Under the pieces are notes generated by a model that searched no databases, was not told where the DNA came from, and was given only the letters and a program-made list of their open reading frames with translations. Source: Escherichia coli (GTDB lineage Bacteria; Pseudomonadota; Gammaproteobacteria; Enterobacterales; Enterobacteriaceae). From it: a stretch of 64,000 nucleotides of DNA. The translations under genes were made by a program, and so were the position numbers. The DNA lies in NCBI RefSeq assembly GCF_003790525.1, contig NZ_CP033635.1; one strand, 5' to 3'. Position 1 is the first letter of the stretch. The number at the start of each line of letters is the position of its first letter. Of this stretch, positions 3,365 to 53,930 are shown piece after piece.

Positions 3365-5660
<2,296 letters not shown>

Positions 5661-5873
5661 ATGTAGATCAAATTGATCGTAATTAAGCTTTTTTGATTAT
5701 GTCCGAATTCGGACAAATGCTTTATAAAAAAGGATTTTAGCTTCATATCCTTCAAGTAATGAGGGAGAAAACAAGGCTGACAACCTTATTTTCCCGCCCT
5801 CATTTCGAGGCAGCATTTTGTGCTCTGTTTAAAATTTGTGATCACTGTGTGATTTTCACAAAAGCCACACTAT

Positions 5874-6767
<894 letters not shown>

Positions 6768-47747: not shown

Positions 47748-47891
47748 TCGTGTTTCCGCTTCGCCGGAGCGCCTTTTCGCGCCATGTGATGAGTTCGGTC
47801 AGGCTCATGGGATACAGTTCTGATGGCGGCCAGTGAAATATCACTGCCACATCCGCCATCAGGTCATCGACCGAGAGATTTTTCGGAAACG

Positions 47892-48223: not shown

Positions 48224-48742
48224 TCACAGGCCGATATTGCGGCGGTGTTGCTCCAGCCGGTCGACGCCGTTCACCTTCTCAATCATGTTGATGGTGTCGA
48301 TTTCGACCAGCTCCTTACCGTCCATCGTCAGCCGGAAATAGGTGCAGACCACGGAGATTTTCGACTCAGTGTCTTCTCCCTGTTTACCCTCGCCAGTGTC
48401 GATTTCTTTCTGACGTCCACGCATGACCACTTCGACGGCCACCGTTTCGCCGGTATCGTCACGCTGGTAAGAGCCTGCAAAACGAATCGGCACAGCATCC
48501 ACACCGGTTGCGGCGTAAAGCTCCCAGATAACCGAATCCGGGAAGCCACCGAGTGACCACTCCATTGACAGCGCATCGTCATCAAGGCCGAGGTCTACCG
48601 GTGCGCTGCCGTTCATCCCCGCACCGCGATAGTTTTCGAGCTTACGGGTCAGTTTTGGCAGCGTGACGGACTTTGCAACGCCCTGATAGCTGTAGCCGTT
48701 CAGAAAGACGTTCATTAACTTGAGTTTGCGCGGCATTGCCAT
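48224..48742 (-). CDS. FII: Tail tube protein (gpFII)
   Basis: 172 aa; position after FI. Confidence 0.9.
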   Translation of the reverse strand: MAMPRKLKLMNVFLNGYSYQGVAKSVTLPKLTRKLENYRGAGMNGSAPVDLGLDDDALSMEWSLGGFPDSVIWELYAATGVDAVPIRFAGSYQRDDTGETVAVEVVMRGRQKEIDTGEGKQGEDTESKISVVCTYFRLTMDGKELVEIDTINMIEKVNGVDRLEQHRRNIGL

Positions 48743-48754
48743 CGGTCAGGCTCC

Positions 48755-49945
48755 TTAATTGCTGTTAACCGAGGTGACCAGATTTGCCAGGTATTTATCG
48801 GTAATACGCTGGCGCAGGGTCAGGTTTTCAAGAGGAGGCACCGGGGTATAGTCGTAGTCGATATACAGTTTTCCGGCCTTAAGGGTTTCCGCATCGTTGG
48901 ATTCTTCGCTGAACCAGCAGGTCGCATCCACGATATAGCCGTTTGTTTTCAGCTCACGGAATTTGGCATTGATGCCGTCAACGATGTCGCGAATCAGCGT
49001 TGCGGTGATGGGCTTGTCCACCGCCCACATGTGCGCCTCAGCCATCGTGTCGGCCAGCACCTGCGCGGTGCGGGTGTAGTTTTCAAAGAGGAACAGCGGG
49101 TCATCAGAGCAGGTACGGTTACCCCAGAATCGGAAACCGTCGCGGCGAATCAGCGTAGTGACGCCTGACTCGTTAAGCAGGTCAGCATCGGTGCCGGACT
49201 CCTGCAAATCCCAGAATACAGATGCGCTGATGCCGGTAACACCGTTCACCCCGACATTGGACAGCGTTTTATGCCAGCCCTGCTCCTGGTCGATTCTGGC
49301 ACGCAGACCCAGCGCACGGGCGGTGGCATACGCGGTGGCGGTGGTGCTGGTGACCGTATCCCATGCGAGGAAATCCGGCCAGATGACCATCAGCTCACGC
49401 TGGCTGAAATTCTGGCGGTAGGCTTTCACCTCGGAAATGGTTTTACAGCCCCATGCGCTGATATACCCGAAAGCGCGCAGCTTCTGACAGACTGATGCCA
49501 GTGCAACAGCCACCTCTTTGGTATCCAGCCCCGGCACGCCGAGAATACGCGGTTTAACACCGGTTACCGACTCCGCCGCCAGCAGGGCTTTCAGTCCGGT
49601 GTACTGACCGTTTTCGTCGGTGGTGCCGATGATATTGGAAACGGTCTGCGCAAGTTTCGTTTCCTCGTCGTCGCCGGTGCCGTCTTCCACACGCACGACA
49701 ACGGTGACCGGTTTTGACTGGTCGGCGATGGCCTGCAACGATGCCGCCAGCGTGCCTTTTTTACCGGCCTTTGCAATTGCGCTCTGCACATTGGTAATCA
49801 GCACTGGTTTATTGAGGGGGAAGATTTCCGCATCCGCATCGCTGGCCGTGCAGACCATGCCAACAATGGCGGTGGATACGGTGGAAATGACGCGGGTGCC
49901 GTCGTTAATCTCCAGCACCTGCACGCCGTGATGATAGTCACTCAT
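48755..49945 (-). CDS. FI: Contractile tail sheath protein (gpFI)
   Basis: 396 aa; MSDYHHGVQVLEINDGTRVISTVSTAIVGMV...; position before FII. Confidence 0.9.
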   Translation of the reverse strand: MSDYHHGVQVLEINDGTRVISTVSTAIVGMVCTASDADAEIFPLNKPVLITNVQSAIAKAGKKGTLAASLQAIADQSKPVTVVVRVEDGTGDDEETKLAQTVSNIIGTTDENGQYTGLKALLAAESVTGVKPRILGVPGLDTKEVAVALASVCQKLRAFGYISAWGCKTISEVKAYRQNFSQRELMVIWPDFLAWDTVTSTTATAYATARALGLRARIDQEQGWHKTLSNVGVNGVTGISASVFWDLQESGTDADLLNESGVTTLIRRDGFRFWGNRTCSDDPLFLFENYTRTAQVLADTMAEAHMWAVDKPITATLIRDIVDGINAKFRELKTNGYIVDATCWFSEESNDAETLKAGKLYIDYDYTPVPPLENLTLRQRITDKYLANLVTSVNSN

Positions 49946-50041: not shown

Positions 50042-50072
50042 AAAGAAAAGGCAGGCAATTCGCCCGCCTGTC
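50042..50072 (-). terminator. Putative terminator downstream of the G/FI cargo gene
   Basis: Minus strand caggcgggcgaattgcctgcc followed by ttttctttatc. Confidence 0.45.
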
Positions 50073-50264
50073 CTGATTTGTACTCACTCATTTTCCGACT
50101 GACAATTTACATAGCCAAAACGCTATCAAATCTGACAGTCTGCTTTGAGCGAGGAGCAGAGGTTAGTTTTAGTTAACCAAAATGATAAAAAGCAGTAGAA
50201 AAATCCGCTCATTACGTTATGGTTATAAGCCGCACATAATCATCCGAGCCAAATCCTCTTGATT

Positions 50265-51164
50265 TCAAAGAATTAGCACTTGCTCTTCACTAGAAACTAT
50301 GGTTCTGACTTCACGCTCAAATATTGGATCCATTATCATTTTTCTATTTGTTGGAATAGTAAATTTACCGAGTACCATGACAATGCTACTCAACGGAAAT
50401 AATTTTGGAGTAACATTTCCTAATTGAATCGTAGGATATATATTAAAGCCCCCTTTTATCCTCATTGGCGAACCTTCAATGAAGTGTCGATAATTAAATT
50501 TCGCCATAGGGATTCTCGCCACATGCACTTTCATAATTACAGCAACCTGAGCTATTTTTACTTTCTGGAGGTAAGTTGACAATCGTTCTAACTGCGTTGT
50601 TTCATAGAAAAAATCAGACCACGTTACAGTACTTGTTCCAGTAACAATTTTTATGCTGTTTCTCTTGTTGGGGTGAGCTTTTCCATATTCATAGATCTCC
50701 CGTAAGCTATCCATGTTCTTCACATAAGGGGCTTTCCGACCTCTCTTGACATAAACGCGGTCTGTAGTATCAGAAGGTGGATTTGCCTGCATAGCTGCAG
50801 CTTTTCTGCTTAATTTAGAGATATCATCTTCATCGAGTATATGTATACGGAATATATTATTACCTGTGGCAAGCGCACGGCTGATATCATGACTGGAATC
50901 ACTTGCATAAATTGTATTCAATCCTGAAGTTCCATACTGGCATAATTTGTCATGCGTGAAATTTTTTTCCAGTCTAAAGAAGGCGGGGATATGCAAGGTT
51001 TTATTAAAACTCCGACGAATATGGCTTTTGACATACACCAAATGAGCAGAGCAATTTGGGTCAGGACATTTGAGTGGATAGGGATTAACACTATAATTAA
51101 AAGTATTTACATTTACTAAAATCTGATTGTTATCAATAGCCTGAGTTATACGAATACCACTCAT
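50265..51164 (-). CDS. AT-rich cargo (moron) protein at the P2 Z/fun position between G and FI; candidate phage-exclusion protein
   Basis: 299-aa ORF with markedly lower GC than flanking tail genes; occupies the slot where P2 carries the T5-exclusion gene Z/fun; no family recognised. Confidence 0.6.
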   Translation of the reverse strand: MSGIRITQAIDNNQILVNVNTFNYSVNPYPLKCPDPNCSAHLVYVKSHIRRSFNKTLHIPAFFRLEKNFTHDKLCQYGTSGLNTIYASDSSHDISRALATGNNIFRIHILDEDDISKLSRKAAAMQANPPSDTTDRVYVKRGRKAPYVKNMDSLREIYEYGKAHPNKRNSIKIVTGTSTVTWSDFFYETTQLERLSTYLQKVKIAQVAVIMKVHVARIPMAKFNYRHFIEGSPMRIKGGFNIYPTIQLGNVTPKLFPLSSIVMVLGKFTIPTNRKMIMDPIFEREVRTIVSSEEQVLIL

Positions 51165-51379
51165 TACTCCTCCATAAAGATAGGCGCAAGCATTTAGTAA
51201 TAAACCATTAACATGCCGAGATCATACCCGATCATTGAAATGTAAACACTCCCCTAAGACGGCTGCTGGCATAATATTTTATGACATCAGCAATGCCCAC
51301 CTCTGGCACAGAGTGGACTGTCAGATTAGGCTTTACTCTGTGCCATAGATATGTAAGCCCACACTAGAGCTCATACAAC

Positions 51380-51907
51380 TTATTGCGGCATTTCCGGCCA
51401 TTCAGGATTTGCAGGATCCACACGACTGACCAGAACACTATAGCGTTCCCATGCCTCCAGTCGACTACGCTCCTCATCTGTTGCCATATTCAGCCTGACC
51501 GCGCGCTCCAGCGGCAAAATCACGGATTCAGCTTCGGAAAGCAAAGCTGCCTTATGTAATTCCGCCAGTTTCTGCTGTTCGTCTGCCGTATAAATCCGCT
51601 TAATCACGGCACCATCCTTAAACATCCATTTACCTGAGTCGTCAGCACGTCGGTTGGAGGTAATATCAGGAACCTCAACAACGCTAAAACCTTCAGGATT
51701 AAGCGTTGAAGCATCTCTGGTGATAGCGACAATAATATTATTTTCATCGTAAACAATCTTTATTGTGTCTGGCTGAAAGTTCTTCACTTCCTCATACCAG
51801 TTTTTTCCGTCCTCAGAGTAAAGCCAGATAACTCCGTGTTTCTTTGTTAACTCATACTGTTCCAGTGTTTTAGCGTTACCCGCTTTTATGTTCTTTAAGT
51901 GCATCAT
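51380..51907 (-). CDS. G: Tail fiber assembly protein (gpG)
   Basis: 175 aa immediately downstream of the tail fiber gene. Confidence 0.85.
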
Positions 51908-51908
51908 A

Positions 51909-53930
51909 TTAAACGCTCGCTACATTATACCAGGTGCCATTTATATACTTTTGAACGGGTCTGTAATAAACGCCCGCTATATTATCGGCAGAGTTGGACC
52001 CTGTATCCTGAACATTAATACCAGACAATACATGACCTGACGGGCACTGGAAATTCCATGTTTGCCAGTTGTTCACTCCATAATATTGCTGTGACCCAAG
52101 TCGAACATCTTTCACATATCTGGAATCAAAATTGCCATAGTTGCCAGGAATAACTTGCGAGCCACAAAGCCAGTTACCGTTATTATCCATGTACGCCTGA
52201 CCATCGGTGCCATTGGCTGTCCTTGAGTTATTAATCATGTAGATGCCAAATTGCTTGTTCCCCAGTCCACCTATCATGAACTTGCGGTCAGCGTGATTCT
52301 GGCGAAGCAACGCCTGAGCGCTATCAGTGTTAACTATATTTTTCCCAAAGATAGCGTTGTTATCGCGCATCTGAATCCACATACCATTACTGCTGTTAAT
52401 AGCAAAACGGTCTGAAAGCGTCTCCCCTGAAACATTAAGGCCACGCCCCATCGAAACAGCGCCAGTAGCGTTATTAATCCATAATGGCCTTAATCCGTTA
52501 TAAGTCCCCATGTTGTCACCGGAGTTTGTCAACATGAAGTATGTATTTGAACCATCATTACGAATAAAGAATCCGTAATTACCATAAGCAATACGTAGGC
52601 CGTTTGCTGATTTTGATATGACTTCGCCATTTACAATGGCATTGACAAGAACATACAAAGCATCCCATTTAAGATTCATCAGGTCTTTTGTTGTAGTACT
52701 CTGGCGGCTTCTCCATTTGAAATATTCATTGCCGTTATCCCCCGTTTCAAACCACATGAATGAATCAGTGTCACCATCGGCATCATTTTTAAATCCAATC
52801 TTCGCCCAGTCAGTATTTCGAATCCAGGCAAGGATTGAGTCGTTTTCAAAAGTAAGTCCACCGGACAAGGTATCGCCATTTTTTTGCACGGCGTTCCCGG
52901 CTCGGTTTACCGTTTCCTGTAAACCGAGATATTCGATAACGGCGGCAACGGTCGATTTAGCCAGAATATCCCGCCCGACTTTTGTCAGGGTTGCCAAGCT
53001 GGCAACATCATTCCCAATAAAATACGGAAACCTGTCTGCCGCAGTAGCAAGCCCCGCCAGTGCCGTCAGGGTGGCATCTTTCGGTTGCTTACCCGCAAGC
53101 GCATTAGTCATGGTGGTAGCAAAATTCGGGTCATTGCCCAGCGCCGCCGCCAGCTCGTTCAGCGTATTCAGTGCGTCAGGCGACGAGTCTACAAGGGCGG
53201 CAATCGCGGCCATAACGAAAGCCGTGTTTGCGATCTGAGTATTATTCGTTCCCTGTCGCGCAGTTGGCGTCGTTGGCGTTCCGGTCAGTGCAGGGCTGTT
53301 TAATGGCGCTTTCTTGTTCGTTTCATCCATTACCGTCTTAACGGCTTTCGGCGTTGCAGCCAGTGTTTCAGACGTGCTGTTGGTCGCACTGCTTAACTGA
53401 GTAAAACCTTTTGCGGTCAGCGAGGCGTCAGGGTGACGTCGTGACTGTTCATGTTCTGCAATTTTGTCATCAACGTAATCCTGCGTCGCCATCACCGTTG
53501 TGGTGTCGATGGTCAGATCCACTGAGGCTACACTGCTGACGATAATGACCATGCGGCAGGTCTGCGAACGTCCTGAGCCTTCGGCAAGGGCTGGCTTATA
53601 ACTTTCGGCCATGTTCGCCACGGCAATTAACGTTCCCGCATCATCGTACAGGCCAAGCTCACGCATCCAGAAACCGCCCACCTCCGGCGGAATAACCAGC
53701 TCTGCGATAATATAATTACTGTTTCGTTTGTCCTGGCTGATTTTGTTCAGCGCATGTCGCCAGACTTCGTGGATAAGCCCGGTCTGTCCGGCATCCGGGA
53801 CAGGCAATTTACCACCGCCATCCCCGACGGCCATCGTGGTAATGTTGACCTTCCGCCCTCCCGGCGCGGTTGCCGCTGCCAGCTTTGCTGCACCGGCAGT
53901 GGTGATAACGGTTTTGAATTTTGTGCTCAT
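51909..53930 (-). CDS. H: Tail fiber protein (gpH)
   Basis: 673 aa; N-terminus [41 protein letters not shown]... Confidence 0.9.

Follow-up and report, generated by a model that had tools for sequence, protein, structure and literature searches.

Mobile insertion cassettes, or 'transporter' derivatives of insertion sequences, carry passenger genes between transposon ends without a transposase, as in MIC231 of Bacillus cereus. The ends of Mu, Tn7, Tn552 and the IS481–IS21 group, all elements of the DDE type, read 5′-TG…CA-3′, are long and structured, differ between left and right, and are bordered by a short target duplication. The locus that we describe here, the slot between genes G and FI of a P2-like prophage in E. 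coli, belongs to a family that resembles both. With mobile insertion cassettes this slot family shares terminal inverted repeats, a target duplication, small passengers, the lack of an internal transposase and the occurrence of copies in many replicons; it differs from them in that the sequences are unrelated, its two kinds of end have an unusual length of ~90 bp, and its 7-bp duplication is centred on TAA or TGA. With the ends of Mu, Tn7, Tn552 and IS481–IS21 it shares TG…CA termini, TGTCAG boxes, ends that differ from each other and a short duplication, but it holds no transposase, ATPase or targeting gene, and the likeness is one of end anatomy.

In P2-like phages the slot is described as 'moron position 2', morons being extra transcription units between essential phage genes (PMC3573123), and as the Z/fun defence hotspot, in which exchangeable accessory genes lie between G and FI (10.1101/2022.05.12.491691; 10.1101/2024.10.15.618418). 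The accessible parts of these three papers deal with the same locus and the same idea of accessory genes and describe gene content; flanking repeats, termini and a duplication are not mentioned in those parts. Full-text literature searches with the repeat sequences returned nothing relevant. Flanking repeats are nevertheless already on record, and the feature is thus known, since the GenBank entries for the Z-regions of P2-EC31 (AJ512677) and P2-EC53 (AJ512682) annotate a 'left inverted repeat' and a 'right inverted repeat'. The annotated sequence is the same as ours: the left repeat (3–115) reaches from the end of G as far as …GCGGAC/GCGGAA and includes the dyad that is the subject of this analysis, and the right repeat ends at the terminator. 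The limits differ, because the annotated left repeat starts inside G, whereas we place the outer limits at TGTA/TACA with the 7-bp duplication. The stretch analysed here, 64,000 nucleotides in length and called the window below, has another cargo, of the Wphi orf44 type; nothing essential differs. We presume that both entries stem from Nilsson, Karlsson and Haggard-Ljungquist (Mol Biol Evol, 2004).

Taken alone, the hairpin matters little, being one structural element of a repeat that public records of the P2 Z-region have annotated for some twenty years. Its setting matters more: the G–FI slot is one of the recognized anti-phage gene reservoirs of E. coli. Transposon anatomy, plasmid relatives with defence cargo and the presence of the inner repeat in CP4-type islands together suggest a concrete and testable route of gene flow between phages, islands and plasmids, and the ~90-bp ends could be used as search handles for new cargo genes. 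We consider it likely that the dyad is a conserved sub-terminal part of the ~88-bp G-side end repeat of an ancient non-autonomous element, which is the Z/fun slot of P2-like phages. Because no transposase was found, the element is read as a transposon from its ends, duplications and empty sites only.

The dyad and the slot in the window

All genes from H to FII lie on the minus strand. Genes H (51909–53930) and FII (48224–48742) were taken from the list of open reading frames, as was G (51380–51907), which encodes the tail fibre assembly protein (Pfam Caudo_TAP, E=1.2e-34); the first backbone gene past the slot is FI (48755–49945), for the tail sheath (Pfam Phage_sheath_1). The TAA stop codon of G (51380–51382) falls inside the G-side copy of the 7-bp target duplication, AATAAGT on the minus strand (51378–51384). 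The whole transposon-like insert, which is the Z/fun slot, follows on the minus strand and measures 1299 bp (50079–51377). Its G-side ('A-type', left) terminal inverted repeat of ~88 bp occupies 51290–51377 on the minus strand, and its FI-side ('B-type', right) counterpart of ~90 bp occupies 50079–50167 on the plus strand. Each end contains a 36-bp inner repeat, IRL (AATCTGACAGTCCACTCTGTGCCAGAGGTGGGCATT; 51293–51328, minus strand) on the G side and IRR (50129–50164, plus strand), inverted with respect to IRL, on the FI side. Beyond the insert lie the FI-side duplication copy, AATCAGG on the minus strand (50072–50078), and a canonical intrinsic terminator found by the terminator scan, consisting of AGGCGGGCGAATTGCCTGCCT followed by TTTCTTT (50049–50069, minus strand).

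The cargo is an open reading frame of 299 amino acids (50265–51164, minus strand) that corresponds to orf44/gp44 in the Wphi annotation and to PHROG 7195, a family of unknown function; the protein gave no Pfam or PADLOC match. It stood in a P2 context at all nine distinct places shown among the 30 contigs read, including truncated prophages beside ogr, and it is listed in 4292 blocks of the assembly collection.

The dyad, arms and spacer together, covers 51304–51345 and has no strand; it sits between the stop codon of G and the start of the cargo (ATG at 51164, minus strand). A preliminary description of this DNA had reported a perfect inverted repeat with a 20-nt spacer, and both are present, although the position it gave (51295–51334) is off by 10 nt. 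The perfect arms are 11 bp long (51304–51314 and 51335–51345, around a spacer at 51315–51334), with ggcacagagt and actctgtgcc at 51305–51314 and 51335–51344, and pairing extends to 14 nt at 93% (51301–51314 and 51335–51348). IRL spans the cargo-side arm plus the adjoining 3′ portion of the spacer, and contains a small hairpin of its own.

First-order Markov simulations gave 0.42 expected perfect 11-bp inverted repeats with loops of at most 30 nt per 64-kb window, and apart from the dyad the window holds none with a loop of 15 nt or more. On window statistics alone it is a borderline excess over chance; that it is more than chance follows from its recurrence at homologous junctions and in unrelated replicons, with some compensatory changes in the arms. 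Folded as DNA, the 48-nt dyad segment reached −11.9 and −11.0 kcal/mol on the two strands (z −4.5 and −4.1) and beat 200 of 200 shuffles; in an 81-nt RNA context its folding was unremarkable (z −1.4 and −2.2). An Rfam scan gave no covariance-model match at the dyad even at E≤10. A 13-codon mini-ORF across the first arm was set aside, as several lineages have no ATG for it.

The position of the dyad, about 35 nt past the stop of G in the transcribed 3′ flank and with no terminator between, would suit a hairpin in the late V-W-J-I-H-G mRNA that stabilizes the 3′ end or acts as a weak terminator or insulator before the cargo. The innermost pair also fits such a role, being U·G on the G-sense strand, and so tolerated in RNA only, in 68 of 72 P2-type sequences. 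However, A·C mismatches, which become G·U only on the opposite strand, are common too (16 cells). The dyad resembles an intrinsic terminator in having a G+C-containing stem past a stop codon, but it differs in its 20-nt loop and in lacking a T-run on either strand, and the terminator scan gave no call there. The true terminator at 50049–50069 is 1.2 kb further on, so the preliminary description was right to say that the dyad is not a typical one; in the P2 record, the terminator of the V operon is annotated elsewhere. The dyad is also entirely absent from phages without cargo, and plasmids and other phages carry it at transposon ends whatever gene comes before. We therefore regard a function in the late mRNA as very improbable.

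Two further perfect 10-bp inverted repeats lie in the window. One, at 47820–47862 in the E / E′ / T overlap region, has a 23-nt loop (CTGATGGCGG…CCGCCATCAG) and is close to the tail-chaperone frameshift region, which may or may not be meaningful. The other, at 52901–52928 inside gene H, is CTCGGTTTAC-N8-GTAAACCGAG and includes TTCCTGTAAACCGAG, which resembles the crossover sites of the Gin/Cin/Pin invertases in tail-fibre segments of the Mu/P1 type.

One end beside many cargos

Used as a query, the 215-bp spacer between G and the cargo matched 711 of 5426 complete E. coli genomes, and the dyad stands at the homologous junction in about 680–710 of the 5426. The cargo side is shared by only 116 of the matching genomes; in the others, similarity ends at the arm of the dyad nearer the cargo or a little beyond it. 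P2, Wphi, L-413C and many further Peduoviridae likewise have the dyad at this junction, again with different cargo beyond, so that its conservation at the Z/fun-slot boundary of other P2-like prophages, a point raised in the preliminary description, is borne out. Among 80 IMG/VR loci collected through the G protein and 120 collected through the spacer motif, ~88 nt 3′ of the G stop are constant and the sequence beyond varies (a G-protein search of the species genome set gave only 4 loci). Between these two constant ends, the 112 loci in which both boundaries are present carry cargo of 43 unrelated clusters.

We found a second conserved segment, of ~90 nt, just upstream of the terminator (57 distinct P2-type sequences). 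It is absent from P2-like phages that have no cargo. Three of these, two from IMG/VR (L061 and L063) and one from Hafnia alvei (L206), have the terminator immediately after the G stop, then the FI promoter region, and lack both the repeats and the cargo. The dyad travels with the G-side end rather than with the cargo, as two 3′ ends of G in a single phage contig (L097) each bear it. The preliminary description had also offered the dyad as a recombination footprint left by cargo exchange. It was correct to tie the dyad to the arrival of cargo; the dyad is no exchange scar, though, and belongs instead to the ~88-bp terminal inverted repeat as one of its integral parts.

The same comparisons bear on the proposal, also made in the preliminary description, that the dyad binds a protein that controls cargo expression, that is, that it is an operator for a regulator of the cargo promoter. 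The sole promoter-like match, a sigma-70-like TGGGCA-17-TATTAT (51299–51271, minus strand), does begin 5 nt past the dyad on its downstream side, within that portion of the repeat which is nearer the cargo, and might be the cargo promoter, although it is a consensus match only. But one and the same dyad stands beside at least 43 unrelated cargos, which does not support a cargo-specific operator, and it is present in other replicons near different genes. The orientation of the cargo varies as well: fun(Z) of P2 is opposite to the cargo of the window and convergent with G. Nor does the dyad match the element that we take to mark Ogr/delta-dependent late promoters of P2, a TGT-N12-ACA dyad ~55 nt upstream of the late start, because it reads ACA…TGT with other spacing. 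By these sequence comparisons the operator is largely refuted, and we give it hardly any chance.

Two features of the G-side boundary were seen in passing. In L097 (6566–6675 and 7774–7883), and also in L164, two G-type 3′ ends lie 1.2 kb apart in one phage contig, each followed by the left repeat; the stop codon TAA of the second copy in L097 is replaced by GAA, so that the frame is 3 codons longer. Eight different cargos (L012, L015, L018, L021, L038, L097, L119 and L170) share a further stretch ~45 nt inside the left repeat, rTTGmTrACAT…GTTAAT…GGGAGCAGGTCA, with a weak −35/−10-like arrangement. The left boundary is thus nested and has no single point.

Termini, target duplications and empty sites

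The termini of the insert are TGTA…TACA, reading 5′-TGTATGAG…GAGTACA-3′ on the minus strand. The consensus of IRL and that of reverse-complemented IRR agree at 31 of 36 positions, with a score of 47 against 13.3±2.2 for shuffles (z ~15), and the 22-nt core of the inner repeat has two copies in the 64-kb window, where none is expected. Over the longer ends, the G-side and FI-side copies of the window are identical at 58 of 87 positions, and the two ends of a plasmid element (L224) match each other at 65 of 89. When the window was compared with this plasmid element, its G-side end matched the A-type end at 61/90 (score 88; shuffles 30±5) and its FI-side end matched the B-type end at 59/92 (score 85; shuffles 29±5), a full-length z of ~12 for both. 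Similarity between the outer 52/57 nt of the two ends was not significant by simple local alignment and is clear only by way of family members.

The target duplication AATAAGT/AATCAGG is decayed, with 5 of 7 positions kept in the window and in 77 loci. Better copies exist: one P2-type locus has 6/7 (L087, AATAAAT/AATAAAG), as has one other insertion (L237, ATTAAGT/ATCAAGT), and 7/7 are kept in L224 (GCTAAGG), L238 (GCTGAAT) and L293 (GTTATAC). In the cargo-less phages L061 and L063 the empty site reads CAATAAAT|ACAGGCGGGCGG, just what results when the two flanks of a filled site are joined, left to right. In 16 of 22 non-P2 A-type flanks, T[AG]A or its complement stands exactly 2 nt from the terminus. 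Targets centred on TAA/TGA explain why the P2 insert is positioned at a stop codon.

Among the same flanks we observed the stop triplet itself exactly 2 nt before the terminus in 10 of 22, and its complement in 6 more (for example L237, L246, L294 and L328). At four non-P2 insertions that stop closes a long open reading frame, the situation of G in P2.

Several other kinds of element were considered and set aside. An invertible DNA segment was rejected, as cargo in both orientations occurred nowhere among the 81 distinct cargo sequences, which gave no minus-strand match of at least 200 nt to one another; the list of open reading frames has no invertase in the slot of the window. By eye the repeats are unlike the gix/cix consensus and unlike the Xer dif-like/pdif and integron attC consensus sequences, and no IntI gene lies near the slot. 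A 'split palindrome' was rejected because in no IMG/VR phage do the two inner repeats adjoin directly. Within-phage correlation gave no sign of concerted evolution or long-range pairing of the left and right copies (p=0.74). The ends of ISEc12, of the IS21 family, are unrelated to those of the insert, and the enterobacterial repeats RU-2/YPAL and RU-3 have unrelated sequences and a TA duplication instead. An 11-nt match to ERIC was seen.

These observations suggest how the slot may have arisen. The element would have inserted once in the P2 lineage, with a DDE-type transposase supplied in trans. The dyad and its flanking TGTCAG boxes may have been recognized by that transposase or by a host factor, or may have formed a hairpin at that end. 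The P2 copy would now be immobile and would change its cargo through recombination with other family members, by way of the nearly invariant inner part of the repeats, and in the prophage the dyad probably has no role in the expression of the cargo. Both the mode of action of the dyad (enzyme binding or hairpin) and the mode of cargo replacement (homologous or site-specific exchange between copies) are inferred.

Relatives in islands, plasmids and other phages

The P2 consensus of the inner repeat is identical at 38 of 38 positions to a site in CP4-type islands of E. coli, where all the surroundings differ. In the islands the site lies upstream of the GTPase–Ag43 backbone and bounds variable regions; it is paired with an inverted second site, and units sometimes stand in tandem. 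A query of the island end (the site plus 89 nt of backbone) matched 2133 of 5426 E. coli genomes, ~40%. The site is absent upstream of yfjP in CP4-57 of K-12. The version of the dyad at CP4-type ends is shortened and degenerate, and a comparison of the P2 and CP4 slots for common cargo gave distant homologues only (24–27% identity) and one 115-nt match.

We noted tandem cassettes in two islands, L210 (4732–4800 and 5789–5813) and L211 (3270–9033). An iron-uptake operon, with a TonB receptor and an ABC transporter, forms one cassette with the same two site types in both strains; in L210 its A-type site is 12 nt from the site of the next cassette.

Identity of this kind in otherwise different surroundings could mean that the inner repeats are two heterospecific site-specific recombination sites, the dyad overlapping one of them, at which a dedicated recombinase swaps cassettes among P2 phages, CP4-type islands and plasmids. 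The architecture of the inner repeat is suggestive, with 8-bp arms around an 8-nt spacer and with four fixed differences between IRL and IRR that fall mostly in the spacer and are stable in 51 phages. Inverted cargo was never seen, polymorphisms linked to cargo begin within the repeat, and the iron-uptake cassette joins different neighbours right after …AGCGGAC in L210 and L211, where cassettes are in tandem. However, no recombinase gene is consistently nearby, breakpoints are scattered over 10–25 nt with no single position, and the perfect 7-bp duplications and TG…CA termini already account for the insertions. Across the wider family, pairing in the small inner hairpin stands at only 75.7%, less well preserved than in the dyad. 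Moreover, 36–38 bp of identity suffices for homologous exchange by phage recombinases, which counts against a dedicated enzyme. We consider such paired recombination sites unlikely.

Outside P2 phages and islands, the site was found on 442 plasmids of Klebsiella, Pantoea, Enterobacter, E. coli, Salmonella, Yersinia and others. Plasmid and metagenome copies form a complete unit, with two ~90-bp ends of two kinds, the termini TGTATTAGCTCAG…CTGAGCTAATACA and the perfect 7-bp direct duplications listed above (6 of 7 in L237); relatives with such ends and duplications are also present in CP4-type islands of E. coli and in other phages. The lambdoid CDT-I phage cdtI (L347, AB285204) has the same type of end at 6001–6074, after a 2.1-kb hypothetical gene beside the integrase, and the Klebsiella Reipivirus Kp4847-1 (L348) has both site types ~1.6 kb apart (4454–6085). 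The cargos scanned include a DRT type 8 system, a nucleotidyltransferase (NTP_transf_6), an LmuA-like protein and unknowns. No protein family, and no transposase, recurs among 36 loci outside P2 and CP4, and the only transposase among the scanned cargos is an IS110-family passenger in L238; with no recurrent transposase inside, the elements are non-autonomous.

More speculatively, the Z/fun slot could be one fixed copy of a widespread, unnamed, transposase-less cassette family of Enterobacterales, with ~90-bp ends of two kinds, TGTA…TACA termini and a 7-bp duplication on TAA/TGA, that moves accessory genes, those for defence among them, between P2-like phages, CP4-type islands, plasmids and further phages. 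The dyad would be the recognition element for an enzyme acting in trans, and the unlike ends would block inversion yet allow swaps of cargo. We put this forward tentatively, as a possibility about which we retain considerable doubt.

IS110-family transposase genes were seen just inside an element end (L238, 5897–7327) and beside the island backbone (ISEc20; L209, 10342–11538). Their presence at the repeats may reflect targeted insertion or coincidence.

We compared pairing of the dyad within P2 and across the wider family. In 72 P2-type sequences, 94% of dyad cells are paired and covariation does not go beyond that of shuffles; the same holds for covariation in the small hairpin GTCCGCT-N10-AGCGGAC that overlaps the dyad. 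Set against synonymous sites at the adjacent end of G, the dyad has no extra conservation (pi 0.087 vs 0.143, p=0.30). Within P2, a sign of present-day constraint on the dyad is absent.

In the wider family, 88.7% of dyad cells are paired among 67 distinct A-type ends. The covariation score is 0.099, against 0.081±0.005 for shuffles, of which 0 of 500 reach it, and at most 0.055 for slid controls, given a shuffle control that ignores relatedness and a first arm fixed in part by the search pattern with which the set was collected. Cells with double changes number 11, against 5.6±1.8 (1 of 500 shuffles). Stricter measures were weaker, with 58 of 500 shuffles for double-change pairs and 15 of 500 for further pair types. 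Complementarity of the arms fits a symmetric protein site and a hairpin equally well. Compensated arms, GGCACAGACC/GGTCTGTGCC, occur in a Salmonella contig (L223), and in phage cdtI the arms of the dyad are kept and the spacer has diverged.
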